From a virus (lineage: Duplodnaviria; Caudoviricetes), in IMG/VR virus record IMGVR_UViG_3300028027_000073, positions 1 to 52,362 of that record: DNA of 52,362 nucleotides. One strand, 5' to 3'. Below are positions 1,680 through 46,427 of this stretch, piece after piece (positions within the stretch are counted from its first letter, which is position 1; every line of letters begins with the position of its first letter). Below the pieces are notes generated by a model. The model worked only from the letters and a program-made list of their open reading frames with translations, made no database searches and was not told where the DNA came from. Both the position numbers and the translations under genes were made by a program.

Positions 1680-1680
1680 A

Positions 1681-2120: not shown

Positions 2121-2450
2121 ATGGAAGAGATTATAGATTTTGATGACAATAGTGTGTTGGCACATACCCCAGAAGGTAAATTGCTAACATGTATACTAAC
2201 GCAAGCAGTAGAAGATGCTTTATATAGACACGCACCTAATAAATCAGGTACTAAAAATATGAAGTATCATCATAAGATTAATTTTGAAAACAAAATAGAC
2301 GCTATTAAATGGTTGTTTACTAATAGCGAATTATTAGATTCATGTTGTTTTGTAGTAAACGTGCATAAAGATTCTATTAGAAAAAAGATAATAGATATTA
2401 TAGGTGCAGATGTTATTCATCCACTTGTGTATAATGTTTACAAACCATAA
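2121..2450 (+). CDS. Hypothetical phage protein (arm A only)
   Basis: GGAG RBS; coupled to the next gene. Confidence 0.7.
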   Translation: MEEIIDFDDNSVLAHTPEGKLLTCILTQAVEDALYRHAPNKSGTKNMKYHHKINFENKIDAIKWLFTNSELLDSCCFVVNVHKDSIRKKIIDIIGADVIHPLVYNVYKP

Positions 2451-2839
2451 TGGACATGCAACTGACAGAGCATGACGTTCATTGTATAGCTACAGCAGTC
2501 TATACAGAAGTCAATACACAATCACTACAAGAAAAACTAGGAGTTATTCATGTGATTGCCAATAGAATAAGGTCTAAAAGATTTGGCAAAGATGCTTGTG
2601 AGGTTGTATATAGTCGTGGGCAGTTCATAGGGGTAGAAAACTATGTAAATGGTAAGCAATCTAAACCCGATCAAAAAATGTTTTTAGAAACTCAATTACT
2701 GGTACTTGACACATTAGTTTTTAAGAAGTATGCTAACCCAGTTGCAAATAGCTTGTATTTTCATGATGATAGTATAGATATGCAATTTATTTGGAATAAA
2801 AAGAAAGTAGTCCACATAGGAAGGATGGTATTTTATTAA
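2450..2839 (+). CDS. SleB/Hydrolase_2-family cell wall hydrolase
   Basis: CIATAVYTE, VIANR, C.VVY..GQF, LYFH, IGRMVFY motifs. Confidence 0.85.
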   Translation: MDMQLTEHDVHCIATAVYTEVNTQSLQEKLGVIHVIANRIRSKRFGKDACEVVYSRGQFIGVENYVNGKQSKPDQKMFLETQLLVLDTLVFKKYANPVANSLYFHDDSIDMQFIWNKKKVVHIGRMVFY

Positions 2840-3069
2840 TGAAACCGTTAGCATGGCTTGTAGAAGAGTTTGATAGCACAGGTAAACTTGTATGGTCTGG
2901 TCTTATGACTTCAGAACCTACGGAACTTTCATGGTTAAAAGACCTTAAATTAAAACTTCATAATGTTACGATAACACCATTAATACCAGATACCAAAAAT
3001 ATTGTAAAAGTAACTAATGTTAAAAAATATGATAGCAAAAAACTAACGGAGGCTTACGGTGGCAACTAA
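2839..3069 (+). CDS. Hypothetical protein
   Basis: PLAWLVEEFD...ITPL, homologous to 41387..41632. Confidence 0.65.
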   Translation: MKPLAWLVEEFDSTGKLVWSGLMTSEPTELSWLKDLKLKLHNVTITPLIPDTKNIVKVTNVKKYDSKKLTEAYGGN

Positions 3070-3796
3070 ACCAAATTTATTTATAGCAACACCAATGTAT
3101 GGAGGTTTATGTTATGGCACTTATTTAGAGTCTATGCTTAAACTGCAAGCATGGCTTAATGCTAAAGACATAGAAGCATACTTTTCATTTTTGTATAATG
3201 AAAGCCTTATTACTCGTGGTCGTAATACATTAGTGAATGACTTCTTAAAGGGTGACGCTACACACTTAATGTTTATTGATGCTGACATACAGTTTGAGGC
3301 ACAACACTTATTAAAGATGATTGACTCTGATGTAGAGATTATATGTGGCTTGTATCCTAAAAAAGAAATTAATTGGGGTGCAGTATCTTTTGCTATTGAA
3401 AAGAAAGTGCCACAGGATCAACTTAAATACTTTACTGGCGAGTATGTAGTAAATATGGTTGGCGATGTTGAGAAACAACTTGTGCCATTAGATAAGCCAT
3501 TTGAGATTAAACATGGTGGCACTGGATTTATGTTGATTAAACGTGAAGTATTTGAAAAGCTCAAAGACAAGTGTCCATCTTATACACATAACATGAATGA
3601 TGTAAATGATAACTCTGATTTAGGTGACAAGGTTACAGAATACTTTACCACTAGCATTGATGACCGAAATCATTTATTAAGTGAGGATTATCATTTCTGT
3701 AAACTAGCTAGGGATAATGGTATTAAGGTTTGGGGTGCAGCATGGGCACAACTAGGTCACACAGGCACTTATCAATTTAGTGGCAGGCTTGTATGA
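3059..3796 (+). CDS. GT-A fold glycosyltransferase-like protein
   Basis: IATPMYGG, SLITRGRN, LMFIDAD (DxD), GTGFMLI, SEDYHFC. Confidence 0.8.
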   Translation: MATKPNLFIATPMYGGLCYGTYLESMLKLQAWLNAKDIEAYFSFLYNESLITRGRNTLVNDFLKGDATHLMFIDADIQFEAQHLLKMIDSDVEIICGLYPKKEINWGAVSFAIEKKVPQDQLKYFTGEYVVNMVGDVEKQLVPLDKPFEIKHGGTGFMLIKREVFEKLKDKCPSYTHNMNDVNDNSDLGDKVTEYFTTSIDDRNHLLSEDYHFCKLARDNGIKVWGAAWAQLGHTGTYQFSGRLV

Positions 3797-4377
3797 TTAT
3801 ACCTAATGACATGATTAGCCATGTAGGTAAGATATTTCAAGGTGAATATGCTATAGAAGGTATAGGAAAAAGCCCTTATATTATAGACATTGGTGCTAAC
3901 GTAGGTGGATTTGCAGTATGGGCACATGAATACTTTGATAAACCAAAGATAGATTGCTATGAGCCTATAAAAGCTAACTATAGTTTATTAAGGCAAAATA
4001 CAGCAGGAACTGATATAGCTATTAGAAACTTTGCTATTGGTAAAGAAGATGGTGAGCGTATGATGTACTACGGATTAAATAACTGTGGTGAAGCTAGTAT
4101 GTTTCAAGGCAAAGAACAAAGAGCAGAAGGTGAAATGGTTAAAGTAATGTCTGCTAAACACTTGCCAGAGTGTGCCATCATGAAAATAGATACTGAAGGT
4201 GCAGAAATAGAGATACTAGAGAACTTGACTGTACAACCAGTAGTATTTCTTATAGAATTCCATAGTGCATGGAATAGAAGACGTATAGATGAATTATTGT
4301 ATGACTATACCTTGATAGATTGCACAATGCGTGGTTATAATTACGGAATCTTAAAGTACTTAAGAGGTAAATTTTAA
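3793..4377 (+). CDS. FkbM-family methyltransferase
   Basis: IDIGANVG, YEP, KIDTEGAE motifs. Confidence 0.9.
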   Translation: MIIPNDMISHVGKIFQGEYAIEGIGKSPYIIDIGANVGGFAVWAHEYFDKPKIDCYEPIKANYSLLRQNTAGTDIAIRNFAIGKEDGERMMYYGLNNCGEASMFQGKEQRAEGEMVKVMSAKHLPECAIMKIDTEGAEIEILENLTVQPVVFLIEFHSAWNRRRIDELLYDYTLIDCTMRGYNYGILKYLRGKF

Positions 4378-4389
4378 AAGGAGAATCAT

Positions 4390-4668
4390 ATGGATAATAT
4401 CAATCATCCAAAGCATTACTTGGTAGGTGGTATAGAAGCAATAGATGTTATTGAAAGTCGCTTGACAAAAGAAGAGTTTATTGGATACCTAAAAGGCTGT
4501 AAAATGAAATACGACTTACGCTACCCTTTTAAAGGCAAGTTTGAAGAAGATTTAGACAAGTCTGAATGGTATAAAAATAAACTATTAGAAATAGTTAAAG
4601 ATGAAGATGTTGTTAATCCACCAGAGGTTGCTGCTCAATTACAAAGACTAGAAATGGTTGATGATTAA
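4390..4668 (+). CDS. DUF3310/SaV-like protein
   Basis: INHPKHY..GGIEAIDVI...KY..R...EDLDKSEWY. Confidence 0.85.
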   Translation: MDNINHPKHYLVGGIEAIDVIESRLTKEEFIGYLKGCKMKYDLRYPFKGKFEEDLDKSEWYKNKLLEIVKDEDVVNPPEVAAQLQRLEMVDD

Positions 4669-5170
4669 CATTCCGATCAAGGATGAAATTGTTAGTCATT
4701 GTAGAAGTTTACTAAAAAAAACTAACTTTGGTAATAGAGGTGTTGCTGATGGCAATGCCTCTGAACAGTTAAGAGGTATTGTAGGTCAGTCTGTTGTTTT
4801 AGATTTTTTAGGATTACCATTCATTGAATCTAATGGATTTGATAATGGAATAGATTTTACATATAAAGATAAAACGTATGATGTAAAAACTATGGGAAGA
4901 AATTGTGAGCCAAAGCCATATTTTGTAAATAATCTAATTGGATTGCAAGATAAATACAAAGTAGATAGATACATATTTTGTAGTTTAAATAGAACCAATA
5001 TGATATTAACTATTTGTGGCTGGATAGATAAAAATGATTTTATTGAAAAAGCTAGTTTTTATAAAAAAGGTACTGTAAGAACTAGAAGTGATAATACATT
5101 TTTTCAAACAAAAGCTGATTTGTATGAATTACAAAACAAAGAATTGAATGATTTTAGTTTAATCGTCTAG
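4658..5170 (+). CDS. Putative PD-(D/E)XK nuclease-like protein
   Basis: GIDF...YDVKT motif; very AT-rich; arm A only. Confidence 0.5.
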   Translation: MMINIPIKDEIVSHCRSLLKKTNFGNRGVADGNASEQLRGIVGQSVVLDFLGLPFIESNGFDNGIDFTYKDKTYDVKTMGRNCEPKPYFVNNLIGLQDKYKVDRYIFCSLNRTNMILTICGWIDKNDFIEKASFYKKGTVRTRSDNTFFQTKADLYELQNKELNDFSLIV

Positions 5171-5326
5171 TTCTGGCACTTCTGAATAAACGGAAAGCCC
5201 ATCACCACTAATTTCAATGTGGCTTCCGTCATCTAACATTATAATAAGCACGTCTTCACCGTAATAGGCTTCTGCTTCTACTACCATTTTGCCTACCATG
5301 TGCTCACATAACTGTTGAATGTTCAT
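5159..5326 (-). CDS. Small acidic hypothetical protein
   Basis: Homolog at 42885..43061 (C.HM.G, LDD...IEISG). Confidence 0.7.
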   Translation of the reverse strand: MNIQQLCEHMVGKMVVEAEAYYGEDVLIIMLDDGSHIEISGDGLSVYSEVPELDD

Positions 5327-5334
5327 AATTTTCC

Positions 5335-6072
5335 TTATATGCTGATAACTGATTCTTTTGTAACTTGTTCTGATTTCACTGATCTGCTCCATTTACCACA
5401 TCCTTGACATTGGAATCGTTGATAGTGTCGTGATAAATTAACTGCTGAACCACGCTTTTGTAATTTGCTAGAACCGCAATTTGGACATACTGTATTTGCG
5501 GAATACGCATTGTGGTTAGGATGATTTTTAATCCATGCTTTAAACTTGTCATAAACTTTTTCAAGTAGTACTACATCGTTTTTATTGTACTCTTCCATAG
5601 TCTTCCAAGCTTTACGATCATCGTTCATACACTTAACCCACAATGTATGACCTTCATGTTCTGTTTTAGAACCTAAACCTAAAGCCTGTGATACATAATC
5701 TAGTTTGTTAGAAACAAACCTAAATTGTCTACGAGCTACTTGTAATAAATCTATCTGTTTGGCAGGTGCTGGAGGCGGCATACCTGCTAATAAGAATTCT
5801 TTGTGTAGTATGGGTATGTCAAACCTAGAACCGTTGTAATGGACTATAGCATCAGCTTCATCAAGAAGTTTATGCACAGAGTCTAGCATCTTTTGTTTGC
5901 CAGATTTTTGAATAGAATCAAACATGATTTTAGATTCACCGTACCACTTGGCTGCATAGCAAAGGGTATAAGATGATTCTAATAATTGATTTATAGAGAT
6001 GTTCTGGTCAAAGATACCCCAGACATGAGCAGTATTTGGTGCTACTTCTATATCAATAAGTAAAATTTTCAT
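5335..6072 (-). CDS. RNase H-like (DnaQ/YprB-type) exonuclease with C-terminal Zn ribbon
   Basis: LIDIE, HYNGSRFD, NKLDYV, YNKNDV; CPNC...CQGC. Confidence 0.85.
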   Translation of the reverse strand: MKILLIDIEVAPNTAHVWGIFDQNISINQLLESSYTLCYAAKWYGESKIMFDSIQKSGKQKMLDSVHKLLDEADAIVHYNGSRFDIPILHKEFLLAGMPPPAPAKQIDLLQVARRQFRFVSNKLDYVSQALGLGSKTEHEGHTLWVKCMNDDRKAWKTMEEYNKNDVVLLEKVYDKFKAWIKNHPNHNAYSANTVCPNCGSSKLQKRGSAVNLSRHYQRFQCQGCGKWSRSVKSEQVTKESVISI

Positions 6073-6099
6073 AATAACCTTTAGTTATAAGTTTACTTA

Positions 6100-6549
6100 T
6101 TATATACCAAGAAATAGTCTGCGTTCATCCAATCTTCTGTTTTGTAAGCCTTTTAGGACTTTACCACCAGCTCTACAATATTTAACTAGCGATTCCATAG
6201 CCGTTTCTTTATCGCCACGAAGCAACGCTTGACGGATGGTTGAACGCTGAAAGCATCCAAGACCCAGATTAAAGCAAAAGCTGACAAGAGCGTCAAACTC
6301 ATGTTGTCGTAAAGGCACGTTAGGTAACATCTTATGTACTCCCAACTCAAAACGGTTGAGGTCTCGTTTAAGAATTGCATCTATTTCCTCGTTAGTAAAT
6401 GTTTTGTTCCATTCAGGCGGTAATGTTTTTCCATCACCAATCAAATGACCAATTCCCACTGTCCATAGTTTTGCGGGACACTGGTATGGTTTGTTTCTAA
6501 CACCTTCATGATGTCGGATTAACTTAATTGCCTCTTTAGATACTTTCAC
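6100..6549 (-). CDS. Endolysin, GH24 phage lysozyme
   Basis: HEGVR..PYQC..WTVGIGH, FDALVSFCFNLG, GLQNRR; GTG start assumed. Confidence 0.92.
   Translation of the reverse strand: MKVSKEAIKLIRHHEGVRNKPYQCPAKLWTVGIGHLIGDGKTLPPEWNKTFTNEEIDAILKRDLNRFELGVHKMLPNVPLRQHEFDALVSFCFNLGLGCFQRSTIRQALLRGDKETAMESLVKYCRAGGKVLKGLQNRRLDERRLFLGI
6186..6380 (-). CDS. Candidate overprinted membrane protein nested in the lysozyme gene (64 aa)
   Basis: GAGGA RBS 5 nt before ATG; TM segment plus basic tail; intact in both arms. Confidence 0.45.
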   Translation of the reverse strand: MQFLNETSTVLSWEYIRCYLTCLYDNMSLTLLSAFALIWVLDAFSVQPSVKRCFVAIKKRLWNR

Positions 6550-7033
6550 GTTTCTTTTCCCAAGTGCGAGAACCAAAGTAAAAGCCAATAATACTTGCAG
6601 TAATAGCCATTTCTTCAGAGCCAAATACTTCTTGTGAAGCTACAACAAAGTCAACACCTGACCACATAGCCCATACCAAAGAAATAAGGTTGATAAGCAC
6701 TAACTCCCCTACAAAGATGAAAGCGACTACAGGTCTAACCATAGCGTTCCAGTTCTTAACTGTAGGGCTTGCATTTTCTACTAGCTTCTTATCGTGGTCG
6801 TATAATGCTTCACGTTCTTGTGCGTATGTTTGAACTTCTATTTGGTCTAGCTTAATAGCTTCTATCTTTTCTTGTGATATAAAGCCTGCTTTAGCTAATT
6901 CTAATTCACGTTCTGTTTGTAGTTTAGCCATTTCTCTTTCATGCTTTTGGTCACCTTTTTGCTGAAAGAAACCTAAAACACTGGGTAAGCCTGAAGTAGC
7001 AAAACCTAATATACCTGATAAAATACTTAACAT
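6536..7033 (-). CDS. Holin (3TM/GTA-holin-like)
   Basis: VRP..., hydrophobic segments, IIGFYFGSR C-terminus; overlaps the lysozyme gene. Confidence 0.75.
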   Translation of the reverse strand: MLSILSGILGFATSGLPSVLGFFQQKGDQKHEREMAKLQTERELELAKAGFISQEKIEAIKLDQIEVQTYAQEREALYDHDKKLVENASPTVKNWNAMVRPVVAFIFVGELVLINLISLVWAMWSGVDFVVASQEVFGSEEMAITASIIGFYFGSRTWEKKRESI

Positions 7034-7393
7034 CTATAACTCCTTTGGATCAAAGCCATACATTTTGGCTACACGTTTTTGTAATTTAAGAAACAAGCCT
7101 TTATGACTTGTGTACTGCTCTGTTTTTGGTGAAACTGTATATACACACATATGCAATATTTCATGGCAAAGTGTAATTAACACAGGGTATAAGTGAGAAT
7201 GTCTTGCAGTAGATATAGTAATAACATGTGGCTCACCTTGTTCTGGTGGTTGATATTCTCCACATATAGCATTGTCATTTACGATAACAAAGTCTACTTT
7301 AGATGCTGGTGGTAATTTGTATTCATCAAATATAGGCATCTCTATAATTGCACTATAGAGGTTAGCTATATTATTTTCTGTAATGAATGTCAT
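7034..7393 (-). CDS. Small zincin-like (SprT-like) metallopeptidase
   Basis: TLCHEILH plus downstream H...F. Confidence 0.65.
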   Translation of the reverse strand: MTFITENNIANLYSAIIEMPIFDEYKLPPASKVDFVIVNDNAICGEYQPPEQGEPHVITISTARHSHLYPVLITLCHEILHMCVYTVSPKTEQYTSHKGLFLKLQKRVAKMYGFDPKEL

Positions 7394-7797
7394 TTTGATA
7401 ATGGGTTCATTGTGCTACGTTTAACAGTATTTAGTTTATCATCCATTGCGTTTACGGTTGCTTCTAATTCTTTACGCAGACCTGATACCATAGCTGAAGT
7501 CTCACGAGAGTTGGCAATAGCGTCTGAAGACTTTTCACTAGCTTTCATAATAGATTCAGATAGTTGGTATTGTCTTTCATTTATTGCTTTAACTTGTATT
7601 TCTAAACCATTTAATTTAGACTCTATGGGAGCTAAATCTAAACTGTCAACAGCTTCAATTGCCGTAACCATCTTGTTGTAAAAAGTTATGCCTGCGTATG
7701 CCGAGCCAGCTACTATTGGCAATGCTATTAAAATCAATTTCAGAAGTGCCGAGCTGGATAAGCTCAAGCTGAAGGTTTTGATTTTTTCCGAACTCAT
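7390..7797 (-). CDS. Membrane-anchored coiled-coil protein
   Basis: N-terminal TM, heptad-rich C-terminus; 134/135 identical to 45092..45499. Confidence 0.8.
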   Translation of the reverse strand: MSSEKIKTFSLSLSSSALLKLILIALPIVAGSAYAGITFYNKMVTAIEAVDSLDLAPIESKLNGLEIQVKAINERQYQLSESIMKASEKSSDAIANSRETSAMVSGLRKELEATVNAMDDKLNTVKRSTMNPLSK

Positions 7798-8728
7798 TGT
7801 TTATCTCCGTATCAAATTTAAATGCGTCTGTTATTTCTATTTGTTGTATAATAGGTTTGTTAAGTATTTCTAATGAAAGGACTATTCCAAAACCATGTAC
7901 AAGCTCTTTACCCTTTGGTACGTCAAGTTTAGGACTCTCCTTGCTCTCATTCTTTTGTTCAGTCTTTGGTGGGTCTTTTGGGCTGTCTTCTTTTGCTTTT
8001 GGCTCACTTTTAGTTTCTTGTTTTGGTTGTTCAACCTTAACAGGAGCTGACTCTACTTTAGGTGGTTCAGGTGCAGCTAATGGGTTTACTTCTGGAGCAA
8101 CAGCAGGTGGTGGTGCAGGAGGTGGATTATTTACAGGGTTAAGGGGTGAGCTAGGGCTAACTGGAGAACTCACGTTAGTGACGTTTGTAGCACTCTTAAC
8201 ACATGTATTGTTTGTTTCTACCCAACCATTCCATACAGGACTTCCATAAGGGTCTGGGCAAGATGAAATGTTAGTTTCTGTAATAGAACCTACATAGTCT
8301 GCTTGACAGGCTAGTTGCCTAGTTTCAACACTTGCCTGACACGTTGGAGGGTCTTGTGTGCAGTTGTTGCTAGTTTCTGTCCAAGCTGACCAGCTTTGCG
8401 TAGAACAACTAAAATTCCTGCTTTGATTAACAGCACCGCTATAGTGAGGTAACGTACAAGCTGTGGTTTGATTTTCAACCAAGTCTGAACAAGCAGGTGT
8501 TTGATACGCACCGCATATTGGGTCACTTGGGTTATAAGATACGCACCAATAGTCTTTAATTGCAATGATTGGATCAATGCCATGACATACGAGAGAACCT
8601 TGAAGCATATAGCCTTCAGGCGTTGGAGTATAGTTGCAATACCAAGCATAAGCATTATTTACCTTTGTTAATGATAGAAGTAGTAATAGGCTCGTCAGCA
8701 ACAAGCGGTATCGTGTATGTATCGCCAT
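7655..8728 (-). CDS. Secreted Cys-rich protein with Pro/Lys/Glu-rich linker
   Basis: Signal peptide (RYRLLLTSLLLLLSL..AYA); Cys conserved in arm B; W-x-x-W-x-E-T-x-N-x-C repeats. Confidence 0.8.
   Translation of the reverse strand: MAIHTRYRLLLTSLLLLLSLTKVNNAYAWYCNYTPTPEGYMLQGSLVCHGIDPIIAIKDYWCVSYNPSDPICGAYQTPACSDLVENQTTACTLPHYSGAVNQSRNFSCSTQSWSAWTETSNNCTQDPPTCQASVETRQLACQADYVGSITETNISSCPDPYGSPVWNGWVETNNTCVKSATNVTNVSSPVSPSSPLNPVNNPPPAPPPAVAPEVNPLAAPEPPKVESAPVKVEQPKQETKSEPKAKEDSPKDPPKTEQKNESKESPKLDVPKGKELVHGFGIVLSLEILNKPIIQQIEITDAFKFDTEINNEFGKNQNLQLELIQLGTSEIDFNSIANSSWLGIRRHNFLQQDGYGN
8311..8655 (-). CDS. Candidate overprinted cationic amphipathic protein (114 aa)
   Basis: TAATG coupling to the upstream stop; same length in both arms; no Asp/Glu. 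Confidence 0.5.
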   Translation of the reverse strand: MLMLGIATILQRLKAICFKVLSYVMALIQSLQLKTIGAYLITQVTQYAVRIKHLLVQTWLKIKPQLVRYLTIAVLLIKAGILVVLRKAGQLGQKLATTAHKTLQRVRQVLKLGN

Positions 8729-9161
8729 ATAGTTTCTTGAATATAGAAGGGTTACGTTCATACCAACCACGTTTAGCAGCATCACCAATAGAACCATTTA
8801 TAGGACATGGTGAGCCTGACTGTATCATGGCTTCAAATACTCTATCGTCTTGACACAAGATAGATACTGCTGCAACTTTAAGACCTAAATCATTAAGAGT
8901 TTTAGCCAGTTTAATGCGTTCACAATTAACGTCTTTATAGCCAGAGCCACCACTTAAGCCAAACAATGTACTAGATACAGAACCAGTAACAGGAACAATA
9001 CAAACGTCTTGGCTAAAAGCACTTATAGAAGGGCTAATGGCACTAGGTGGTGGTTGACCTTTATAGTTAATAGTAGTAGTATCAGCGTGTGCAGTATGAA
9101 CCATAAATAAAACAAGTAAAACAATAATTGTCCAACTAAATATTTTAGAAAATGTTTTCAT
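8655..9161 (-). CDS. Secreted protein with four Cys
   Basis: Signal peptide ending AHA; mature part nearly identical in arm B despite a different signal peptide. Confidence 0.85.
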   Translation of the reverse strand: MKTFSKIFSWTIIVLLVLFMVHTAHADTTTINYKGQPPPSAISPSISAFSQDVCIVPVTGSVSSTLFGLSGGSGYKDVNCERIKLAKTLNDLGLKVAAVSILCQDDRVFEAMIQSGSPCPINGSIGDAAKRGWYERNPSIFKKLYGDTYTIPLVADEPITTSIINKGK

Positions 9162-9162
9162 G

Positions 9163-9321
9163 TTACATAAATTTATGAGTTAATAGAAATACAATCACAA
9201 AACCTGCTGTTCCTAATAGTATTTGTTCTAAACGTTTGAGTCTTGCATTTATTTGTTCATAGCGTAAAGCACATACTTCTTCGTGTGTACTCAATCTTGA
9301 TTCTACGTCTGACTTCACCAT
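9163..9321 (-). CDS. Small coiled-coil plus TM protein (52 aa)
   Basis: Hand-translated MVKSDVESRLSTHEEVCALRYEQINARLKRLEQILLGTAGFVIVFLLTHKFM; homolog at 46869. Confidence 0.8.
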   Translation of the reverse strand: MVKSDVESRLSTHEEVCALRYEQINARLKRLEQILLGTAGFVIVFLLTHKFM

Positions 9322-9322
9322 C

Positions 9323-9385
9323 TTATCCTTTCGGAGCATTATATAAGTTTATAGGGGGTAGGTATAAATCGTGCCATTCAATCAT
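9323..9385 (-). CDS. Possible 20-aa peptide MIEWHDLYLPPINLYNAPKG
   Basis: ATGA overlap with the upstream stop; fills the intergenic gap; absent in arm B. Confidence 0.35.
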   Translation of the reverse strand: MIEWHDLYLPPINLYNAPKG

Positions 9386-11001
9386 TGTTGATTTTGATAC
9401 ATTTTATCTAATTGTTGTAAGTATAAATCTGGCTCTAATAAACTTTGAGCCTCTTGTACTTTCTTAAGCTGTACACCTGCTTTAGCTGTTAAGTCAATAG
9501 GTGTTCCATATCTAGCTACTTTGCCACCAGCTTGAGTTAGCAATCCAGTAATTTTAGGCGATGTAATACCAATACCAAGTGCTGTTAATGGGCTTAATCC
9601 AGTACCAAATGCAATATTAAGTAACCCACCAGCACCACCCAAAGTACCAAGAACACTTTTTGGTTCAAAAGATTTCATAGATGCACCAGCAATTTCTGTA
9701 GATAAATCAATGCCAGTAGCCTTTTGCATTTTATCAGCAAGTGATAATTTAACACCAGTTTCATCACGAGTTGTTCTTAATAATTTTCTTAATGCTGTTT
9801 CTTGAGATGCTTTATTTCCACCAATAAGACCTCTGTCAATCTCTCTAATAGTTTCAATAGAGTTTTCGTAATCTGCCATTGCTTTTTTGTACTCTGGCAC
9901 TTCTTTAACAAGGTAGTTTTTTACACCATTACGAGTGGTGTCTATAACTCTTTGTGCTTGAGTCATCTTTACATCGTCTGGATACACAGCATCTATTCTT
10001 TGTTTTAAAAAGTCTAAACCAGCTGCTGTATGTAATTTAGGTTGAGATTCCCATGTATTAAGAATTTTCTCTACTTCATTAATTGCTGCTAATTCTTTAT
10101 CACCAACACTTACTTGACCTTTGTAAGTAATAGATTTTTTAGCATTATCAAAAGTTTCTCTAATTGGAGCAAAGTCTAATTTAGCTGGACTTGCAGCCCA
10201 TCCAGTATCTGTACCTTTAAATTGGCTTGATTTTTTAGCTGTTGAATATTGCAAATTTTTCTGTGCAATCATTTCTTGTAAACCAGCTTTTGCTTTATTT
10301 AATATTTCTATTGATTCTGTTTTTCCTACAATTTGATTAATTGCAGTATCAATACCAGCTTTAGAAGCTTCATATACTTTTTTAATAGCTTCACCACCAA
10401 CACCAGTTGTTAATCCTAGTATTGGAGGAAGACCAGCTTCTAGCACTTTACCGCTCATATATAATGGATTTGTTACTTTAGATAACTCTGAAAATCCTAC
10501 AGCAGGTGTAGTTACTTGCCTCTCTGTAAATGGAACTTTGCCTGTAACAGATGGAATTTTGTATGGCACAGCTTTAGATGCAATACCAGCACCTGTAGAT
10601 ATATCAAGCAATGCCTCTACTGGTCTTTCTTGAGCATATTGTTTAAATGATTCTGCACTTTGGTACGGTGCTGCAAATGCTCTAAACATTTCTTCTTGTC
10701 TAGATACTGGCATTTTTTCCAATACTTTTTCTGGAGAATACATTTGACCTAAACTTTTTCTTGCTGCTGCTTGTGCACCTCCAGCAAGAGTTTCACCAGC
10801 TGCATAACCAACTTGTGGTGCGTTAGTGATTACATTGTAGCCACCACGCAATATATCCAATAAGTTTTGAGGCACATTTGCACCAGCTTGTAAAAAAGAA
10901 AAGTTTGTTGGAACATCGGCTACAGCACCTGCTTTTAATGGACCAGATGTAGTAATGTCTGGAACTTTATTTTGCGTTAATTTATATAAATCTTCAGCCA
11001 T
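9382..11001 (-). CDS. Putative DNA ejection/internal virion protein
   Basis: Last gene of the ejection cluster; Ala/Gly-rich helical protein with glycine-zipper segments. Confidence 0.65.
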   Translation of the reverse strand: MAEDLYKLTQNKVPDITTSGPLKAGAVADVPTNFSFLQAGANVPQNLLDILRGGYNVITNAPQVGYAAGETLAGGAQAAARKSLGQMYSPEKVLEKMPVSRQEEMFRAFAAPYQSAESFKQYAQERPVEALLDISTGAGIASKAVPYKIPSVTGKVPFTERQVTTPAVGFSELSKVTNPLYMSGKVLEAGLPPILGLTTGVGGEAIKKVYEASKAGIDTAINQIVGKTESIEILNKAKAGLQEMIAQKNLQYSTAKKSSQFKGTDTGWAASPAKLDFAPIRETFDNAKKSITYKGQVSVGDKELAAINEVEKILNTWESQPKLHTAAGLDFLKQRIDAVYPDDVKMTQAQRVIDTTRNGVKNYLVKEVPEYKKAMADYENSIETIREIDRGLIGGNKASQETALRKLLRTTRDETGVKLSLADKMQKATGIDLSTEIAGASMKSFEPKSVLGTLGGAGGLLNIAFGTGLSPLTALGIGITSPKITGLLTQAGGKVARYGTPIDLTAKAGVQLKKVQEAQSLLEPDLYLQQLDKMYQNQQ

Positions 11002-11009
11002 GTTTTATC

Positions 11010-12536
11010 CTAGAAATAATATAATTCGTTATTCATAATGTAATACTGTGCATTTGGATCTAATCCAGACGCTTTGGCTGGGAAACGTTTTTTAATATAT
11101 GGGTTTGCACCAGAATATACTTTAATTTCACCTTTGTCTGTTTTTACTTTTGTTTCTAATGGTAAAAATTCTGATTTTGGAAACTCAAAGTCATTACCAT
11201 AATCATTTGCATATCCTTGATTAAGGTTAGCTTTTGCAGCTTGAATAGTTTGTAATAACTCAACAACTACTCTTTTACCTTCTTCTGGAGGAAGACCTAA
11301 CTTAATTTTATTTAAAGAAGCAATAATTCTATCGCCTTCTTTTTCTGATAAATTTCCTGTTCCAGCTGCACCAGAAGGTGAAAGTGCTTTTAGTTTTTTT
11401 AATTCACTTACTAAAGACGCACCTTCTGTACTTGTAATAAGGTTATTTAATTTAAATGCAGAAGTTCCTTCTATACCAGCACGCTTACTTGCTAAAGGAC
11501 CAAAAGCATTATCAAAATCTTTATCTGTAATAATATCGTATACTGTTTTTTCAAAATTATTTAAACTTGTAAATGAATCTGTTAATCTTTTTTGAATTTC
11601 ACTTTGATTATCTTTTAACTGCTGTCTTGTAACTGCAGAAACATCTTGTCTATTTACAAATGGAATGGTAGATGTTGTTTTTGCAGCAGGAGTAGGATTT
11701 GCAGATACATTTGTTTGCGGAACTTTTGTTGTATTAACTGCAGCAGGTTGAGTTTGTTGCGTAACCTGTGGTTGCGTTACTGGTGCAACATTAGTTTGTG
11801 TAGCGGTAGTAACTTGTGGCTGAACAACAGGTTGATTTGCTTGACTCATTCTGTTTGCTCTATCTAGTTTAATTTGAGCAATAATTTTATCTGCAGATGG
11901 CAATTCATCAAGTGGAGCACTTGGTAATTTGGCTTTAAATTCAGCTCTAGGAACTGCTTGTTTTGACTTTTCTATAGAAGAAACAGCAATAGCGTCTTTT
12001 GCAATACGCACATCAGCCATATCTTGTGCAGATGGGCTTTGAGGATTAATACCAAGTTCTTGCATAATTGAAAGATCTTGTTTATCAATCTCTGGAAGAG
12101 GTCTAAATCTTTCTTGTGTTTTTTGTAGTCTTTCTAATGTGCCTTTTGGATCAATAAAAAAAGCATTTGCTAATTCTGGGTTATTTCTAATAGCGTCTGC
12201 TAAACCAGCTTCTGTTCTTTCAAAACCTTTTAATTCAAACTGACCCTTTTTAATATTTTGCATAAGGTTAGTTAATTCAGTAGTAGTCATAAGGTTTCTA
12301 GTAGCTGCATCTATAGGAGCTTGTCTTCCTCCAACAGCACCAGTAAATCCACCTAATGCAGCACCAGCAACACCTTTATTCCAATTAGAAGCAATACCAG
12401 TAGCTAAACCAAGACCAGTGCCAATAAGTTGTTGCGTCTTAAGTCTTTCCTGTTCTTCTGGAGATAAAAGACCTGCAACAGGGCTTTGTCTTGTAAGAAA
12501 TAATGTATCTAATAAACCTTGAAAATTATCTGCCAT
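11010..12536 (-). CDS. Putative DNA ejection protein (P22 gp20-like position)
   Basis: N-terminal glycine zipper; LKALSPSGAAGTGNLSEKEG motif. Confidence 0.65.
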   Translation of the reverse strand: MADNFQGLLDTLFLTRQSPVAGLLSPEEQERLKTQQLIGTGLGLATGIASNWNKGVAGAALGGFTGAVGGRQAPIDAATRNLMTTTELTNLMQNIKKGQFELKGFERTEAGLADAIRNNPELANAFFIDPKGTLERLQKTQERFRPLPEIDKQDLSIMQELGINPQSPSAQDMADVRIAKDAIAVSSIEKSKQAVPRAEFKAKLPSAPLDELPSADKIIAQIKLDRANRMSQANQPVVQPQVTTATQTNVAPVTQPQVTQQTQPAAVNTTKVPQTNVSANPTPAAKTTSTIPFVNRQDVSAVTRQQLKDNQSEIQKRLTDSFTSLNNFEKTVYDIITDKDFDNAFGPLASKRAGIEGTSAFKLNNLITSTEGASLVSELKKLKALSPSGAAGTGNLSEKEGDRIIASLNKIKLGLPPEEGKRVVVELLQTIQAAKANLNQGYANDYGNDFEFPKSEFLPLETKVKTDKGEIKVYSGANPYIKKRFPAKASGLDPNAQYYIMNNELYYF

Positions 12537-12538
12537 GA

Positions 12539-13276
12539 TTATCCTATCCTTTTAACTTGTAAAAGATTGCCAGCCATTGGACCAGATTGACCTTTTCTAA
12601 TTTGTTGGTTGCCCATTGCTACAGCTTCTTGTAATCTTTGTTTATCTGCTTGTTCATTTTTTTGTCTTATATCTAAAAGACTTTGACCACCACTTAATAC
12701 AGTCATTGGATTTTGTTGGGCATATGACATAGTATTAGAACCTAGATCAGAAAGTCTTTCTCCAAATGTTAATGGTGTATCTACAGCTATACGTCTAGGG
12801 TCTAATGTTAATGGGTTTGGTGTAGAAGAAAATGAAAATGGAATACCAGTAGCAGGTGCACCAGATGCAGCAAATCCCAATCCATCATCAGCGACATTAA
12901 GATATGGGCTAATGTTTATTCCTTGACCTGCACCACCAATTACATTTGTAGGAAGTGAAGTATTAAATGCTATATCATCTAAAGAATTTAATGCTAAATC
13001 GTCTACAGTATTTGCAACAGTAGGAGCTAACTGAACACCAGTTCCAGTAGCAGAAGGTAACGCACTTTTGAAACCTGAAAATAAATTACCACCAGCACCA
13101 CCTGCACCACCTAAAATACCGCCAGTAGCAGCACCTAGCAATGCACCTTTAATAGGGTTTCCACCCATTACACCAGAACCTACAGCTCCGATAGCTGCTG
13201 GAACTAAAATTTCTGGACCAAGAGAAGGTTGTAAAAAGTTCTTAATAATCCATACAGGATTAAAATACTTAAACAT
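12539..13276 (-). CDS. Gly/Ala-rich putative ejection protein
   Basis: Glycine-zipper N-terminus, homologous to 49568..50275. Confidence 0.65.
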   Translation of the reverse strand: MFKYFNPVWIIKNFLQPSLGPEILVPAAIGAVGSGVMGGNPIKGALLGAATGGILGGAGGAGGNLFSGFKSALPSATGTGVQLAPTVANTVDDLALNSLDDIAFNTSLPTNVIGGAGQGINISPYLNVADDGLGFAASGAPATGIPFSFSSTPNPLTLDPRRIAVDTPLTFGERLSDLGSNTMSYAQQNPMTVLSGGQSLLDIRQKNEQADKQRLQEAVAMGNQQIRKGQSGPMAGNLLQVKRIG

Positions 13277-14388
13277 TATTTGCCTACCTTTCCTACTACA
13301 TAGCAGATTGGTTCTAAAATAGCACGATAAATCATGCCATAATTATCACGTTTTTTACCTCTTTTTTGTTTCCAGATATCAGCAGTCCTATGTCTTGCGA
13401 TATGCTCTAAAACACCCCTTAAAATGCGTTGTAGGGCATTCTTTTTACCACTCTTATAAGCATAGTTTACTAATGGTAAGAATAGAGTGTGATAACCTTT
13501 TTCGTATGCTGGGTCTAAATCTTTAGATTGAGCTAACCAAATAGCGTTACGGAAGCTACCAAAGCCATATTCAGCATTCATAGCTGTACATACAATCTTG
13601 CCACCACCTGATTGAGTTGTTTTTGTAACTTGACCAACTGGAGCACCGTATGCAGCACCCAAGTAAGCTTGTAGTTTTGTGTATGGTTTGTTTTGTTCAA
13701 ATTCGTATCTAGCAATTTGATCTTCAAGAGCTTTTTGTGAGTAGTCTTCTCTAACTTGACCAACATTCATAAGTTGGTTAATATCTTGGAATCTAGCTTG
13801 AGCTAATTGAGGAGCTTGTAATGCAGCTGCTTCTTGTCTAGCACGTTCATTAGCATAGTTTTGATATGCAAGTTCACCCGCTTTGCCAGTCAAAGTTGTA
13901 GCTAAAGTATTAGCGGCTCTATTTTGTAAGTCTGCAGAAACATTAGATCCATAACGACCAGCCATAGATGCTGAACCTTGTGCTTGTTTGATAGCATCAT
14001 TGTAAGCTTGTGTAGCTGTTTGAACAGCTGGTTGCATAGCAGCTTGGAAATATGGGTTAGCACCTAAATATTGACCTTGTACAGTACCTAATTGTTGATT
14101 AAGTGCTGCACCTGTAAGAGGGCTTCCTGCTCTTGCTTGTGCTTCAGCTTGTGCTAATGCAGATTCTGTTTGAGCAGATGGGCTAACATATGTTTGACCA
14201 GCAAAATATTCAGGTGTAGTAGTTTGATATAAGTTTTTAGCTTCAGTTAATCCATACTCTACAAATGGTCTTACAGTAGGATCTAATTCGCTTTTGGTTT
14301 CAGATGTGCCGCCACCACCAGAACCTCCACCACCATAAAATGTAAATGACTGTACTAATTCTTGTACCCAATTGTGTAACTTAAACAT
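13276..14388 (-). CDS. Ejection protein (P22 gp7-like position) with GGG-KIVCT C-terminal domain
   Basis: Short leader then poly-Gly; Gln/Ala-rich core; start matched to the arm B homolog. Confidence 0.75.
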   Translation of the reverse strand: MFKLHNWVQELVQSFTFYGGGGSGGGGTSETKSELDPTVRPFVEYGLTEAKNLYQTTTPEYFAGQTYVSPSAQTESALAQAEAQARAGSPLTGAALNQQLGTVQGQYLGANPYFQAAMQPAVQTATQAYNDAIKQAQGSASMAGRYGSNVSADLQNRAANTLATTLTGKAGELAYQNYANERARQEAAALQAPQLAQARFQDINQLMNVGQVREDYSQKALEDQIARYEFEQNKPYTKLQAYLGAAYGAPVGQVTKTTQSGGGKIVCTAMNAEYGFGSFRNAIWLAQSKDLDPAYEKGYHTLFLPLVNYAYKSGKKNALQRILRGVLEHIARHRTADIWKQKRGKKRDNYGMIYRAILEPICYVVGKVGK

Positions 14389-14398
14389 ATCTAGTTCC

Positions 14399-14797
14399 TT
14401 AAAGTGTATATTCCCATGTTTGAGGTTTAAAACCCATCTGTCTTGCTTTACGTTCCCATCCACGTCTTTCGGAGTTAAACGTAACTTTAGTTTTACCGCC
14501 TTGTTTTGCTATTTGTTGAATCTCTTGAAATGCTTGTGTAAAGAGTGCCTCATCATTAATTAATGACCATGCAGCCCATACATGAAGCCTGTTTCCGATT
14601 GGTTGAAGTACTACGAATCCTACTGGTTTATTGTCTATTATTCCCATAAACAACATAGAACGTTGCTCATAGCAATCACAATATACATCTTCTGGTATAT
14701 ACTCGGTATGACCTTTAGACCTGACTATTTCTAATCCGTGTCTAATGTATTCCCAATGTTGACGTAAATTATCTTTAGGTATGTAATGTAAAATCAC
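14399..14797 (-). CDS. GNAT-fold-like virion assembly protein (P22 gp14/T7 gp13-like position)
   Basis: GFVVL, LHVWAAW, S.RRGW.R....GF; lies between tail and ejection genes. Confidence 0.6.
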   Translation of the reverse strand: MILHYIPKDNLRQHWEYIRHGLEIVRSKGHTEYIPEDVYCDCYEQRSMLFMGIIDNKPVGFVVLQPIGNRLHVWAAWSLINDEALFTQAFQEIQQIAKQGGKTKVTFNSERRGWERKARQMGFKPQTWEYTL

Positions 14798-38715: not shown

Positions 38716-38811
38716 ATGAAAATTTCAACAATGATAGCAGTAGCAGTACTATTTTGGGTTTATGTAGCTTCATGCCTTTGGGTTATGGGCAAATTAGCGG
38801 GAGCAATATAA
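38716..38811 (+). CDS. Small early membrane peptide (31 aa)
   Basis: MKISTMIAVAVLFWVYVASCLWVMGKLAGAI; AGGAG RBS; TAATG coupling. Confidence 0.65.
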   Translation: MKISTMIAVAVLFWVYVASCLWVMGKLAGAI

Positions 38812-45095: not shown

Positions 45096-45499
45096 TTTGA
45101 TAATGGGTTCATTGTGCTACGTTTAACAGTATTTAGTTTATCATCCATTGCATTTACGGTTGCTTCTAATTCTTTACGTAGTCCTGATACCATAGCAGAA
45201 GTCTCACGTGAGTTGGCAATAGCGTCTGAAGACTTTTCACTAGCTTTCATTATAGACTCTGATAGCTGATATTGTCTTTCATTAATAGCTTTAACTTGTA
45301 TCTCTAAACCATTTAACTTAGACTCTATAGGAGCTAAGTCTAAACTGTCAACAGCTTCAATTGCCGTAACCATCTTGTTGTAAAAAGTTATGCCTGCGTA
45401 TGCCGAGCCAGCCACTATTGGCAATGCTATTAAAATCAACTTCAGAAGTGCCGAGCTGGATAAGCTCAAGTTGAAGGTTTTGATTTTTTCCGAACTCAT
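45092..45499 (-). CDS. Membrane-anchored coiled-coil protein
   Basis: Homolog of 7390..7797. Confidence 0.8.
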   Translation of the reverse strand: MSSEKIKTFNLSLSSSALLKLILIALPIVAGSAYAGITFYNKMVTAIEAVDSLDLAPIESKLNGLEIQVKAINERQYQLSESIMKASEKSSDAIANSRETSAMVSGLRKELEATVNAMDDKLNTVKRSTMNPLSK

Positions 45500-46427
45500 T
45501 GTTTATCTCCGTATCAAATTTGAAAGCATCTGTTAATTCAATTTGCTGTATAATAGGTTTGTTAAGTATTTCTAGTGAAAGAACTATTCCAAAACCATGT
45601 ACAAGCTCCTTACCTTTTGGCACGTCAAGTTTAGGACTATCCTTGCTATCATTCTTTTGTTCAGCCTTTGGTGGGTCTTTTGGGCTGTCTTCTTTTGCTT
45701 TTGGCTCGCTTTTAGCTTCCTGTTTTGGCTGTTCAACCTTAATGGGAGGAGGGCTAGATAAAACAGGCTCACCAGGGCTATTTGTAGGTAGCCCAGCAGG
45801 AGGTGGTGGAGCTGCAACAGGTGGTGGGTTATTTACAGGGTTAAGGGGTGAGCTAGGGCTAACTGGAGAACTCACGTTGGTGACGTTTGTAGCACTCTTA
45901 ACACATGTATTATTTGTTTCTACCCATGCTCCCCATACATCATTACCATAAGGGTCAGGACAAGATGAATTTCTAGTTTCTGTAACTGAACCTACATAGT
46001 CTGCTTGACAGGCTAATTGTCTAGTTTCAGTACTTGCTTGACACGTTGGAGGGTCTTGCGTGCAATTGTTGCTAGTTTCTGTCCAAGGTGACCAAGAGTT
46101 TGAAGAACAACTATAAGTCCTGCTTTGATTAATAGCACCGCTATAATGAGGTAACGTACAAGCTGTGGTTTGATTTTCAACCAAAGGAGAACAAGTAGGT
46201 GCTTGATACGCACCGCAAATTGGGTCACTTGGGTTATAAGATACGCACCAATAGTCTTTAAGTGCAATTTGTGGGTCAATGCCATTACATACGAGAGAAT
46301 CTGGAAGCATATAGCCTTCAGGCGTTGGAGTATAGTTGCAATACCAAGCATAAGCATTATTTCCTTGTAGGGATAGAAGTAGTAATAGGCTCGTCAAGAA
46401 CAAGCGGTATCGTGTATGTATCGCCAT
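45357..46427 (-). CDS. Secreted Cys-rich protein
   Basis: Homolog of 7655..8728. Confidence 0.8.
   Translation of the reverse strand: MAIHTRYRLFLTSLLLLLSLQGNNAYAWYCNYTPTPEGYMLPDSLVCNGIDPQIALKDYWCVSYNPSDPICGAYQAPTCSPLVENQTTACTLPHYSGAINQSRTYSCSSNSWSPWTETSNNCTQDPPTCQASTETRQLACQADYVGSVTETRNSSCPDPYGNDVWGAWVETNNTCVKSATNVTNVSSPVSPSSPLNPVNNPPPVAAPPPPAGLPTNSPGEPVLSSPPPIKVEQPKQEAKSEPKAKEDSPKDPPKAEQKNDSKDSPKLDVPKGKELVHGFGIVLSLEILNKPIIQQIELTDAFKFDTEINNEFGKNQNLQLELIQLGTSEVDFNSIANSGWLGIRRHNFLQQDGYGN
46013..46357 (-). CDS. Candidate overprinted cationic amphipathic protein (114 aa)
   Basis: Homolog of 8311..8655; TAATG coupling with AAGGA upstream. Confidence 0.5.
   Translation of the reverse strand: MLMLGIATILQRLKAICFQILSYVMALTHKLHLKTIGAYLITQVTQFAVRIKHLLVLLWLKIKPQLVRYLIIAVLLIKAGLIVVLQTLGHLGQKLATIARKTLQRVKQVLKLDN

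Follow-up and report, generated by a model that had tools for sequence, protein, structure and literature searches.

A probable overprinted gene for a basic amphipathic helix in the envelope/lysis block of a freshwater phage group

The window analysed here, the whole 52,362-nucleotide stretch of the viral record IMGVR_UViG_3300028027_000073 (Duplodnaviria; Caudoviricetes), carries a gene for a secreted Cys-rich protein in two copies, referred to as arm A and arm B. In both copies a second frame on the same strand, +1 relative to the Cys-rich host gene and wholly embedded in it, remains open over a long stretch (Table 1). Is this hidden ORF a gene, and what would its product do? An earlier reading made from the letters of the window (the sequence-only reading) had proposed a hidden cationic amphipathic protein with a membrane-active role in lysis. 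To our knowledge, almost all embedded genes described in tailed phages are Rz/Rz1 cases, and gene callers overlook such genes. The hidden ORF is missing from the GenBank annotation of one close relative.

Table 1. Features of the locus and its neighbourhood, in window positions
Feature	Position	Strand	Description
Host gene, arm A	7655..8728	minus	357-aa secreted protein: signal peptide, Cys-rich beta domain, Pro-rich linker, C-terminal helices
Host gene, arm B copy	45357..46427	minus	88% nucleotide identity with arm A
Hidden +1-frame ORF, arm A	8311..8655	minus	114 aa from ATG#1 (8655-8653), 112 aa from ATG#2 (8649-8647); TAG stop 8313-8311
Hidden ORF, arm B copy	46013..46357	minus	114 aa; 34 nt differences from arm A
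Shine-Dalgarno-like AAAGG	8662..8666	minus	6 nt upstream of ATG#1
Upstream 168-aa secreted protein	8655..9161	minus	phrog_20531, function unknown; TAA stop 8657-8655 overlaps ATG#1
Downstream 135-aa protein	7390..7797	minus	N-terminal TM segment and coiled coil, i-spanin-like layout
Holin-like 165-aa multi-TM protein	6536..7033	minus	phrog_6637, function unknown; directly upstream of endolysin
Endolysin (phage lysozyme)	6100..6624	minus	PF00959 E = 6e-36; phrog_7 E = 2e-49; hydrophobic N-terminus

The true coding sequence of the Cys-rich gene is most likely the one listed for arm A, with a signal peptide that ends in AYA and is followed by WYC. The pN/pS of the gene is about 0.35, and the N-domain (residues 30-180) of the AlphaFold2 (AF2) model of its product has a pLDDT of about 90. 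Pfam and PHROG searches with the host protein returned no family, and a Foldseek search of the model against the PDB gave no match at E ≤ 0.001. An antisense ORF of 150 aa lies in the Pro-rich part of the gene in both arms and is interrupted in the relatives L066 and L078. The host gene overlaps both of its neighbours. The last 74 nt of the upstream 168-aa gene coincide with its signal-peptide codons, and the first 143 nt of the 135-aa gene, which shares the +1 frame of the hidden ORF, coincide with the 3' end of the host gene. Fourfold-site diversity in the latter overlap is 0.011, compared with 0.16-0.26 elsewhere in the host gene, and the 135-aa gene is retained in distant clades.

The two arms were compared over the hidden ORF, where 34 of 345 nt differ. 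As had been stated before, the ATG overlaps the TAA of the upstream gene in a TAATG, the encoded protein has 114 residues in either arm, and it contains no Asp or Glu in arm A and a single one in arm B. A further argument of the sequence-only reading, that substitutions between the arms spare the hidden frame, holds only in part. The H>N, T>A, A>T, V>I and V>T changes of the Cys-rich frame are silent in the hidden frame, and the conservative Y>F, R>K and I/L exchanges were found as well, but 12 other changes are silent in the Cys-rich frame and missense in the hidden frame, some of them radical (Q>L, T>I, G>D). Because these coexist with changes of the opposite kind, the two arms alone settle nothing, and the caution already voiced about this comparison was justified. 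The 115-codon stop-free run of the hidden ORF is the longest in any same-strand alternative frame across the 10,879 codons of 37 window genes, the runner-up having 75 codons.

Relatives were gathered with the host protein as the query rather than the hidden protein, which keeps the counts free of ascertainment bias; loci L082-L105, retrieved with the hidden protein and thus biased, were excluded from all counts. The hidden frame is open at 109-115 aa in 149 of the 158 assessable relatives, down to about 37% identity of the host protein, and the position of its stop is conserved along with its length. The exceptions are three relatives with one early stop and six loci, all of one clade, in which the frame is broken. 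Three loci lack the first 18 codons. The start was not assessable in L051, L061, L062 and L079, which lack the 5' part, and the 3'-truncated L042 and L045 were left out of the codon alignment. The phages with the hidden ORF form a widespread freshwater group that is common in lakes. Contigs of the lake metatranscriptome runs X15, X16 and X18 cover the ORF region and those of X17 do not, a frame-blind record of presence in RNA libraries in which DNA carry-over is possible.

The start region is strongly conserved. ATG#2 is present in 155 of 158 relatives and displaced by one codon in the remaining three. Neither stops nor loss of the ATG, both named beforehand as observations that would speak against a gene, prevail among the relatives. 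ATG#2 depends on a Tyr codon of the host frame, and this codon reads TAT in 128 of 128 unique sequences, compared with 18.5% TAC at other Tyr codons, and the TAA of the upstream gene occupies the identical place in 158 of 158 relatives. The close spacing of the two starts (M-x-M) is dictated by the N-A-Y-A codons of the host frame. Of the 149 intact relatives, 137 have a Shine-Dalgarno-like motif within the 16 nt before the start, and none of the 6 broken ones has it, although the latter count as effectively one event because all six belong to one clade. In every locus the hidden frame also has a stop between 2 and 6 codons ahead of ATG#1 (two codons in arm A). Fusion by frameshifting, either to the upstream gene or to the host signal peptide, was considered and rejected on the strength of these stops and the fixed TAA.

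We then asked how often the frame would stay open given the host protein. Synonymous resampling predicts 3-5 stops per sequence in the hidden frame, and the probability of no stop, by synonymous resampling or shuffling, is 0.001-0.025 per sequence (0.001-0.036 across 14 deep lineages). The length of the ORF is thus not what codon shuffling yields, the other outcome named as adverse to the claim. The codons used in the overlap display the same avoidance. A Leu, Ile or Val codon followed by a codon that starts with A or G was defined as a stop-prone context. In such contexts NTA occurs in 0 of 508 cells (0 of 15 columns) within the overlap, compared with 187 of 322 cells (8 of 10 columns) in safe contexts of the same region and 653 of 1865 cells (27 of 54 columns) in stop-prone contexts outside it. 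Fisher tests on columns gave P = 4e-5 and 2e-4 for the comparisons with the safe and the outside contexts, respectively. The stop-prone sites of the overlap are filled by the rare codons CTC, TTG, GTC and ATC. A stop-avoidance simulation with more homologs, which the sequence-only reading had suggested, was performed on a tree of 55 tips with a length of 2.06 substitutions per site. Starting from an open ancestor, a mean of 1.6-11.4 of the 55 tips remained open, and all tips were open in 0 of 1000 replicates under each of six settings.

The hidden protein is cationic and hydrophobic, with a net charge of +17 in arm A and +15 in arm B, about 53% hydrophobic residues, a GRAVY of +0.67, a very basic C-terminal tail and only one Pro in 114 residues. 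Much of this follows from the host protein: its +1 frame yields the hydrophobicity (fraction 0.53 in both the protein and the null), the scarcity of acidic residues and the best 19-residue window anyway. That window has a Kyte-Doolittle mean of 2.2, no higher than the null, and holds a nearly invariant Lys. An excess of Lys and Arg was rejected as evidence; its z of about 4 relative to genome codon usage was accompanied by values above 3 in 2 of 75 controls, and it disappeared under a local permutation null.

The helical hydrophobic moment behaves differently from these composition measures. It is 1.11, compared with 0.63-0.70 in the nulls, giving a z of 4.1 when the null follows codon usage without stops and of 4.85 when synonymous codons are permuted locally; arm B reaches 5.09 (KD scale, local permutation null). 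The signal is robust on three hydrophobicity scales (Kyte-Doolittle, Eisenberg and Wimley-White), peaks solely at 100 degrees and has a z of 2.0-4.6 in 14 deep lineages. As controls, 75 +1 segments were taken from other genes in the window; their z averages -0.11 and does not exceed 1.75. AF2, run with 46 sequences, models residues 2-111 as one helix with a pLDDT of 87.6. One long alpha-helix is therefore the predicted form of the hidden product, with a hydrophobic face that stays coherent at 97.5-100 degrees per residue. Pfam and PHROG searches returned no family for it, holin families included, and all database matches of the protein were to the same locus. In the ESM Atlas it matched only its own viral "hypothetical" clusters, with scores below 0.9. 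Literature searches listed no earlier description of the gene.

Dual-frame substitution rates, proposed earlier as a further check, gave a divided answer. NG86 pS in the overlap is 0.319, compared with 0.327, 0.371 and 0.239 in the other parts of the host gene, so synonymous change is not reduced overall. Transversion diversity at fourfold sites of the host frame, which are second codon positions of the hidden frame, is lowered to 0.095, compared with 0.13-0.18 in flanking non-overlap sequence, as computed from pooled pairs uncorrected for phylogeny. Since overall pS is not lowered, selection would act on the openness of the frame and on the hydrophobic/polar pattern rather than on the exact sequence.

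The broken-frame clade illustrates how the locus looks once the ORF is lost. Its six loci contain 4-6 stops in the hidden frame, matching the null mean of 4.2-5.3, and their moment z of -0.1 to 1.6 is null-like. They keep the same five-gene block, including the holin-like gene and the endolysin, with no extra gene and no visible replacement. As the ORF is lost in one clade while the block stays intact, and three loci lack its first 18 codons, the product would be dispensable in some phage-host pairs. The loss clade counts against an essential role.

Could the open frame be a chance consequence of a Cys/Thr/Ser-rich host protein, inherited from a common ancestor? Such a composition does give fewer +1 stops, the hydrophobic and basic character of the product equals the null expectation, and the antisense ORF in the same gene is likewise shared by both arms. 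Yet several stops would be expected with the host protein as it stands, every simulation begun with an open ancestor lost the frame in at least one tip, NTA is absent from stop-prone sites and frequent at safe sites of the same region, the broken clade displays what chance gives, and the antisense ORF is interrupted in two relatives. In our view the observations already contradict this explanation, and its probability is negligible. Alternatively, the frame might be kept open for regulation, the peptide being irrelevant, if re-initiated ribosomes kept the mRNA unfolded or tuned the Cys-rich gene or the downstream 135-aa gene. The TAATG coupling fixed in all 158 relatives, the undiminished overall pS and the free drift of the hidden amino-acid sequence would suit such a role. 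Against it speak an amphipathic periodicity that is carried by synonymous sites, is specific to 100 degrees, is robust to scale and null, is found in deep lineages and is gone in the broken clade, and the conserved length and stop position. Moreover, the hidden ORF ends about 500 nt ahead of the start of the 135-aa gene with about 12 stops in between, and is therefore unable to deliver ribosomes to it. We regard a purely regulatory frame as very unlikely. That a gene for a cationic amphipathic protein is hidden here is strongly supported by stop avoidance, the conserved start and the periodicity at synonymous sites, and the ORF is very probably a genuine translated and selected gene.

What the product does has to be judged from its surroundings. 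All neighbours of the hidden ORF carry a signal peptide or a TM segment. In each of the four clades inspected, the block that holds it runs in the same direction as the holin-like gene and the endolysin and adjoins them without a break, and it is syntenic in distant clades immediately before these two genes; the holin-like call refers to hydrophobic segments read from the translation. The block is flanked by ejection and structural genes on one side and by lysis genes on the other, and the hidden ORF lies two to three genes away from the holin-like gene and the endolysin, not in between them. A crude regex scan for lipoboxes over the whole record in six frames had a 31-aa ORF (38716..38811) as its sole match, which is not spanin-like; the 135-aa protein with its i-spanin-like layout is present. 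A real gene with a product outside lysis, acting in superinfection exclusion, in anchoring or chaperoning of the secreted neighbours, as an ejection or assembly accessory, or as a nucleic-acid or protein binder, fits all gene-level evidence equally well. The position of the block between ejection/structural and lysis genes, the distance from the endolysin, and the loss of the ORF without replacement in a clade that retains the holin-like gene and the endolysin all agree with it. The contiguous, co-oriented arrangement with these two genes in the four clades argues against it, as does the regex scan, which gave no spanin-type lipoprotein to serve the outer-membrane step. We consider such a product possible but on the unlikely side.

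The reading that we prefer is a real overprinted gene whose helix acts on membranes within the envelope/lysis block, to which we assign slightly better than even odds (roughly 0.55). In the proposed mechanism, ribosomes that end the upstream gene at its TAA would restart at the overlapping ATG#1 or at ATG#2, 6 nt downstream. An SD-like AAGG or GGAG may help the restart, and 112-114 codons would then be read in the +1 frame of the Cys-rich gene. The basic helix would bind or insert into host membranes late in infection and, as part of a block closed by the holin-like gene and the endolysin, could weaken or reorganise a membrane. A lysis or disruptin function is plausible from this context, namely the signal-peptide and TM neighbours, the nearby endolysin and the regex scan without a lipobox ORF of spanin type. 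Among the specific forms of membrane action, disruptin-like breaching of the outer membrane has a low probability taken singly, some other envelope role inside the same block an equal one, and an inner-membrane holin, antiholin or lysis-timing accessory a slightly lower one. It is also conceivable, though improbable, that the protein represents a new class of lysis effector in a large, spanin-less lineage of abundant freshwater podophages. It would then be a long basic lipid-binding amphipathic helix, with a period of about 11 residues in 3 turns, that arose de novo in a secreted-protein gene and serves to breach or prime either the outer or the inner membrane.

For a case built on sequence comparison, the support is unusually good, comprising about 150 diverged relatives, a codon contrast within one region, a product signal at synonymous sites and a null-like loss clade. 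With this locus, the envelope/lysis block of a lake phage group gains an unannotated protein that is probably directed to membranes, and there is a concrete candidate for the outer-membrane step that is missing where phages lack spanins. It would also be a clean natural example of an overprinted gene selected for a physicochemical pattern rather than a sequence. If the lysis-effector reading were true, the natural knock-out clade would show when the effector can be spared.

Several known systems share features with the hidden protein. Holins are small TM proteins with a charged C-terminal tail. The hidden protein falls in their size range and shares with them a very basic C-terminal tail, an M-x-M double start and a single 19-residue stretch of strong hydrophobicity. 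Unlike holins, it carries a conserved Lys in the hydrophobic stretch and its hydropathy is at the null, and a separate multi-TM holin-like gene lies by the endolysin. The E protein of phiX174, encoded inside gene D, and the L protein of MS2 are overprinted single-gene lysis proteins, the sole effectors of phages without holin and endolysin. Like these, the hidden protein is small, membrane-directed by prediction and overprinted in the +1 frame of an older gene, with a putative link to lysis; unlike theirs, its phage encodes an endolysin as well as a holin-like protein.

In lambda-like lysis cassettes, the o-spanin Rz1 is embedded in the +1 frame of Rz. A nested Rz/Rz1 pair is also reported for LambdaSo (10.1101/2024.01.23.576932). 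Like Rz1, the hidden ORF is a same-strand +1 ORF wholly inside an envelope-protein gene, and it belongs to the late/lysis region of a tailed phage that infects a Gram-negative host. It differs in that its product is a long basic helix, not Pro-rich and without a lipoprotein signal or lipobox, and the gene around it specifies a secreted, Cys-rich, signal-peptide protein instead of a TM-anchored coiled-coil i-spanin. An o-spanin of the Rz1 type was accordingly rejected, given the missing lipobox, the single Pro in 114 residues and a host gene that is not an i-spanin.

The disruptin gp28 of phiKT is a hydrophilic and highly cationic protein of 56 aa with a net charge of +7 and a predicted amphipathic helix; its free-standing gene lies between lysis genes of a podophage in which no lipoprotein spanin was found, and it belongs to no database family (bioRxiv 10.1101/515445). 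By contrast, the hidden ORF is embedded out of frame, two to three genes from the holin-like gene, and its product is larger (112-114 aa), more highly charged (+15 to +17) and hydrophobic rather than hydrophilic (GRAVY +0.67, one TM-grade stretch), so that size and hydrophilicity set it apart from gp28, and the likeness is one of description. Our crude scan also gave no lipoprotein spanin for the present phage, which does encode the 135-aa protein of i-spanin-like layout. What the two have in common is a highly cationic protein predicted to form an amphipathic helix, the lack of a family, and a proposed principle of action, direct destabilisation of membranes.

The window (52,362 bp) takes in an entire IMG/VR virus record and corresponds to ~1.4 genome lengths of a podophage. 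Its two arms (window 1-15000 and 38800-52362) lie ~37.7 kb apart and are 88-95% identical; rather than a true repeat, this duplication seems to reflect an assembly that joined two co-occurring strains whose genome is circularly permuted. The late operon on the minus strand runs from the genes for the major head protein, tail fibres and ejection protein through a block of small envelope proteins to the lysozyme. The hidden ORF, a candidate overprinted gene within the Cys-rich gene of this block (the host gene), starts at the TAATG at which the 168-aa gene terminates. The sequence-only reading had described it correctly in every detail, including the coordinates, the arm B copy, the composition and the substitutions between the arms. 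The host frame itself is real, since its protein has a textbook signal peptide, its cysteines are invariant in 37 aligned relatives, its pN/pS is ~0.35, and its N-domain is beta-rich with a pLDDT of ~90 in the AF2 model. The question is therefore whether the second frame is also read.

Positions of the envelope block, the hidden ORF and other reading frames in the window
Feature	Position	Strand	Remark
58-aa tail-anchored protein	9163..9339	-	first in envelope block, in transcription order
168-aa secreted protein	8655..9161	-	second
357-aa secreted host protein	7655..8728	-	third; Cys-rich N-domain, Pro-rich linker, C-terminal helices
Hidden ORF, arm A, 114 aa	8311..8655	-	+1 frame of host gene
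Hidden ORF, arm B, equal length	46013..46357	-	copy of arm A ORF
135-aa TM + coiled-coil protein	7390..7797	-	fourth; i-spanin-like (N-terminal TM plus coiled coil)
119-aa HExxH protein (SprT-like motif)	7034-7393	-	fifth, between TM coiled-coil and holin-like genes
165-aa multi-TM holin-like protein		-	last in envelope block
Phage lysozyme (endolysin)	6100..6624	-	PF00959, E = 6e-36
Antisense 150-aa ORF, one arm	7797-8249	+	over Pro-rich linker
Antisense 150-aa ORF, other arm	45499-45951	+	over Pro-rich linker
31-aa ORF	38716..38811		sole lipobox regex match

In this genome of 36% GC, the 115-codon stop-free run of the hidden ORF is the longest same-strand alternative-frame run among 37 genes (10,879 codons), the next reaching 75. 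Querying IMG/VR with the host protein gave 104 relatives, 80 of which were kept (67-100% identity), and the hidden frame is open over 110-114 aa in all 78 entries having the 5' part. A second set, for which the query was built from aligned, more distant host proteins (125 found, 80 kept, identity down to 37%), has the frame intact (109-115 aa) in 71 entries. Three others (L111, L112 and L144) carry one stop at codon 17 with an ATG directly after it (TTTAGATGG or TTTAAATGA), and 6 are broken by 4-6 stops, all within one clade (the loss clade: L169, L172 and L181-L184, and also L190). When both sets are pooled, the frame is intact in 149 of the 158 entries that could be assessed. The first 18 residues would seem dispensable, because a 96-aa ORF remains in the three loci with the early stop. 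Among database variants of the hidden protein (P0055 and P0090), one has lost its stop and reaches 174 aa, and the other is chimeric between the two frames, probably due to a sequencing or assembly indel.

Chance openness was assessed with the host protein fixed and synonymous codons either drawn from phage codon usage or permuted among the sites of the gene. Under this null, 2.8-4.7 stops are expected in the hidden frame of the 12 relatives tested (probability of no stop, 0.001-0.025), and the exact probability is 0.001-0.036 for each of 14 deep lineages. As to shared ancestry, codon evolution was simulated from an open ancestor (three root sequences) along the tree of 55 unique overlap sequences, which amounts to 2.06 substitutions per site, under GY94 with omega 0.3 or synonymous-only change. 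A mean of 1.6-11.4 simulated tips remained open, and in every setting all 55 were open in 0/1000 replicates. The codons themselves point the same way. A +1 stop is made by a Leu, Ile or Val codon ending in TA before a codon starting with A or G. Within the overlap, NTA is used in 0/508 stop-prone cells (0/15 columns), compared with 187/322 cells (8/10 columns) for Leu/Ile/Val before C or T in the same region and 653/1865 stop-prone cells (27/54 columns) outside it (column-based Fisher tests, P = 4e-5 and 2e-4). The rare codons CTC, TTG, GTC and ATC occupy the stop-prone sites; in one column, Leu is CTC or CTT before a G-initial codon, and CTA and TTA are also used before a T-initial codon.

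Some properties of the hidden product follow from the host frame. Its hydrophobic content (0.53) and few acidic residues are what the +1 frame of the host protein yields anyway. Its sequence drifts (12 of 34 arm differences are missense in the hidden frame and silent in the host frame), and host-gene synonymous divergence is not lowered in the overlap (pS 0.319 vs 0.327, 0.371 and 0.239 elsewhere). The order in which hydrophobic and polar residues follow each other is no by-product of the host frame. The helical hydrophobic moment averages 1.11 vs 0.67 in a no-stop synonymous null (z = 4.1, 0/1000), with a peak at 100 degrees only. Under a stricter null permuting only the region's own synonymous codons, arm A gave z of 4.85, 4.66 and 3.49 on three scales, and arm B gave 5.09, 4.25 and 2.66. 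For 75 control +1-frame segments of other window genes, z had a mean of -0.11 (sd 0.91, maximum 1.75). Across the 14 deep lineages, z was 2.0-4.6. The loss clade is a natural control for selection on the hidden frame: its 4-6 stops compare with a null mean of 4.2-5.3, and its moment z is -0.1 to 1.6. The host protein of this clade is only 316-320 aa long. Fourfold sites of the host gene are second codon positions of the hidden frame, where transversions swap the hydrophobic/polar class. Transversion diversity at these sites (pooled pairs) is 0.095 in the overlap vs 0.133-0.18 in the flanking non-overlap parts, and fourfold transitions are the same as in the adjacent segment. We estimate a probability of about 0.9 that the hidden ORF is a real gene; this part of the sequence-only reading is well evidenced by stop avoidance and periodicity.

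The TAA of the upstream 168-aa gene is at the identical place in 158/158 entries. The ATG of the TAATG (ATG#1) is present in 130 entries and lost in 25, and ATG#2, two codons later, is present in 155; the three entries without it have an ATG one codon away. The Tyr codon forming ATG#2 is TAT in 128/128 unique sequences, whereas every other well-populated Tyr column has some TAC (18.5% overall). Of the 149 intact loci, 137 have an AAGG/GGAG-like motif ahead of the start, and the loss clade, which represents one event, has none. Frameshift fusion to the hidden ORF was rejected, because its frame already meets a stop a few codons ahead of the start. Given the fixed TAA, ATG#2, the SD-like motif and these upstream stops, termination-reinitiation coupling is the likely mode of translation.

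AF2 (46 diverse sequences) predicted one unbroken helix spanning residues 2-111 (pLDDT 87.6). Family-averaged hydropathy peaks coherently at 97.5-100 degrees, and most strongly so in residues 60-112; a heptad coiled coil corresponds to 102.9 degrees. This periodicity fits a straight amphipathic helix of ~3.6-3.7 residues per turn better than a heptad coiled coil. Since the net charge is +15 to +17 and half of the residues are hydrophobic, the simplest reading of the model would be a membrane-surface or membrane-inserting helix, and we lean towards membrane binding. Searches of Pfam, PHROG and ESM Atlas returned no informative family or structural relative.

The block (58-aa gene, secreted protein, host gene with hidden ORF, TM coiled-coil, holin-like and endolysin genes) is syntenic in distant clades, its envelope products all have signal peptides or TM segments, and a six-frame regex lipobox scan of the whole record found no spanin-like lipoprotein. 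Together these features fit the lysis-associated membrane-active protein proposed by the sequence-only reading. Against a lysis role, the loss clade keeps the block from the secreted protein to the endolysin with no added gene. We regard action in lysis as possible, at somewhat below even odds. The sequence-only reading had likened the product to the disruptin phiKT gp28. According to the bioRxiv report (10.1101/515445), gp28, the only characterised disruptin, is a hydrophilic, free-standing protein of 56 aa, whereas the hidden protein is hydrophobic, has twice that length and is encoded 2-3 genes from the holin-like gene. This mismatch and the loss clade weaken the lysis and disruptin part of that proposal, and a disruptin-like role at the outer membrane appears unlikely.

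Other features of the block were also observed. The first 143 nt of the 135-aa gene overlap the host-gene 3' end (window 7655-7797), likewise in the +1 frame; fourfold diversity there is 0.011 vs 0.16-0.26 in the rest of the host gene, a dual-coding signature much stronger than that of the hidden ORF, and the overlap is retained in distant clades. The signal-peptide codons of the host gene overlap the last 74 nt of the 168-aa gene (window 8655-8728), also with low synonymous diversity (pS 0.146, fourfold 0.08). Thus, three consecutive genes and the hidden ORF share sequence. The antisense ORF is interrupted in two relatives (L066 and L078) and is probably a compositional by-product. The i-spanin-like protein has no o-spanin partner by the lipobox scan; as an idea only, the secreted Cys-rich, Pro-rich host protein might be its non-lipoprotein periplasmic partner. 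In a distant clade (locus L191 of G002, 1028-1621), the 58-aa and 168-aa proteins form one 197-aa bitopic protein, which suggests that the two window genes may act together. The HExxH gene is missing at its position in the three other clades inspected (L093, G001 and G002), and G001 has a related 115-aa HExxH ORF upstream of the block instead. The window-clade endolysin begins with a hydrophobic stretch resembling a SAR or signal sequence, whereas those of two distant clades (L190 and L191) start without one; the export mode therefore differs between clades.

The hidden ORF is unannotated in the close GenBank relative MW202481, metagenome pipelines have predicted its product as a hypothetical protein, usually starting at ATG#2 and usually on a short contig, and literature searches found no earlier description. 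It represents a well-evidenced new embedded gene with a putative membrane or lysis role. Overprinted phage genes are of a known kind, exemplified by Rz1 in Rz and by phiX174 E, and the hidden ORF differs from both in its host gene and its type of product.
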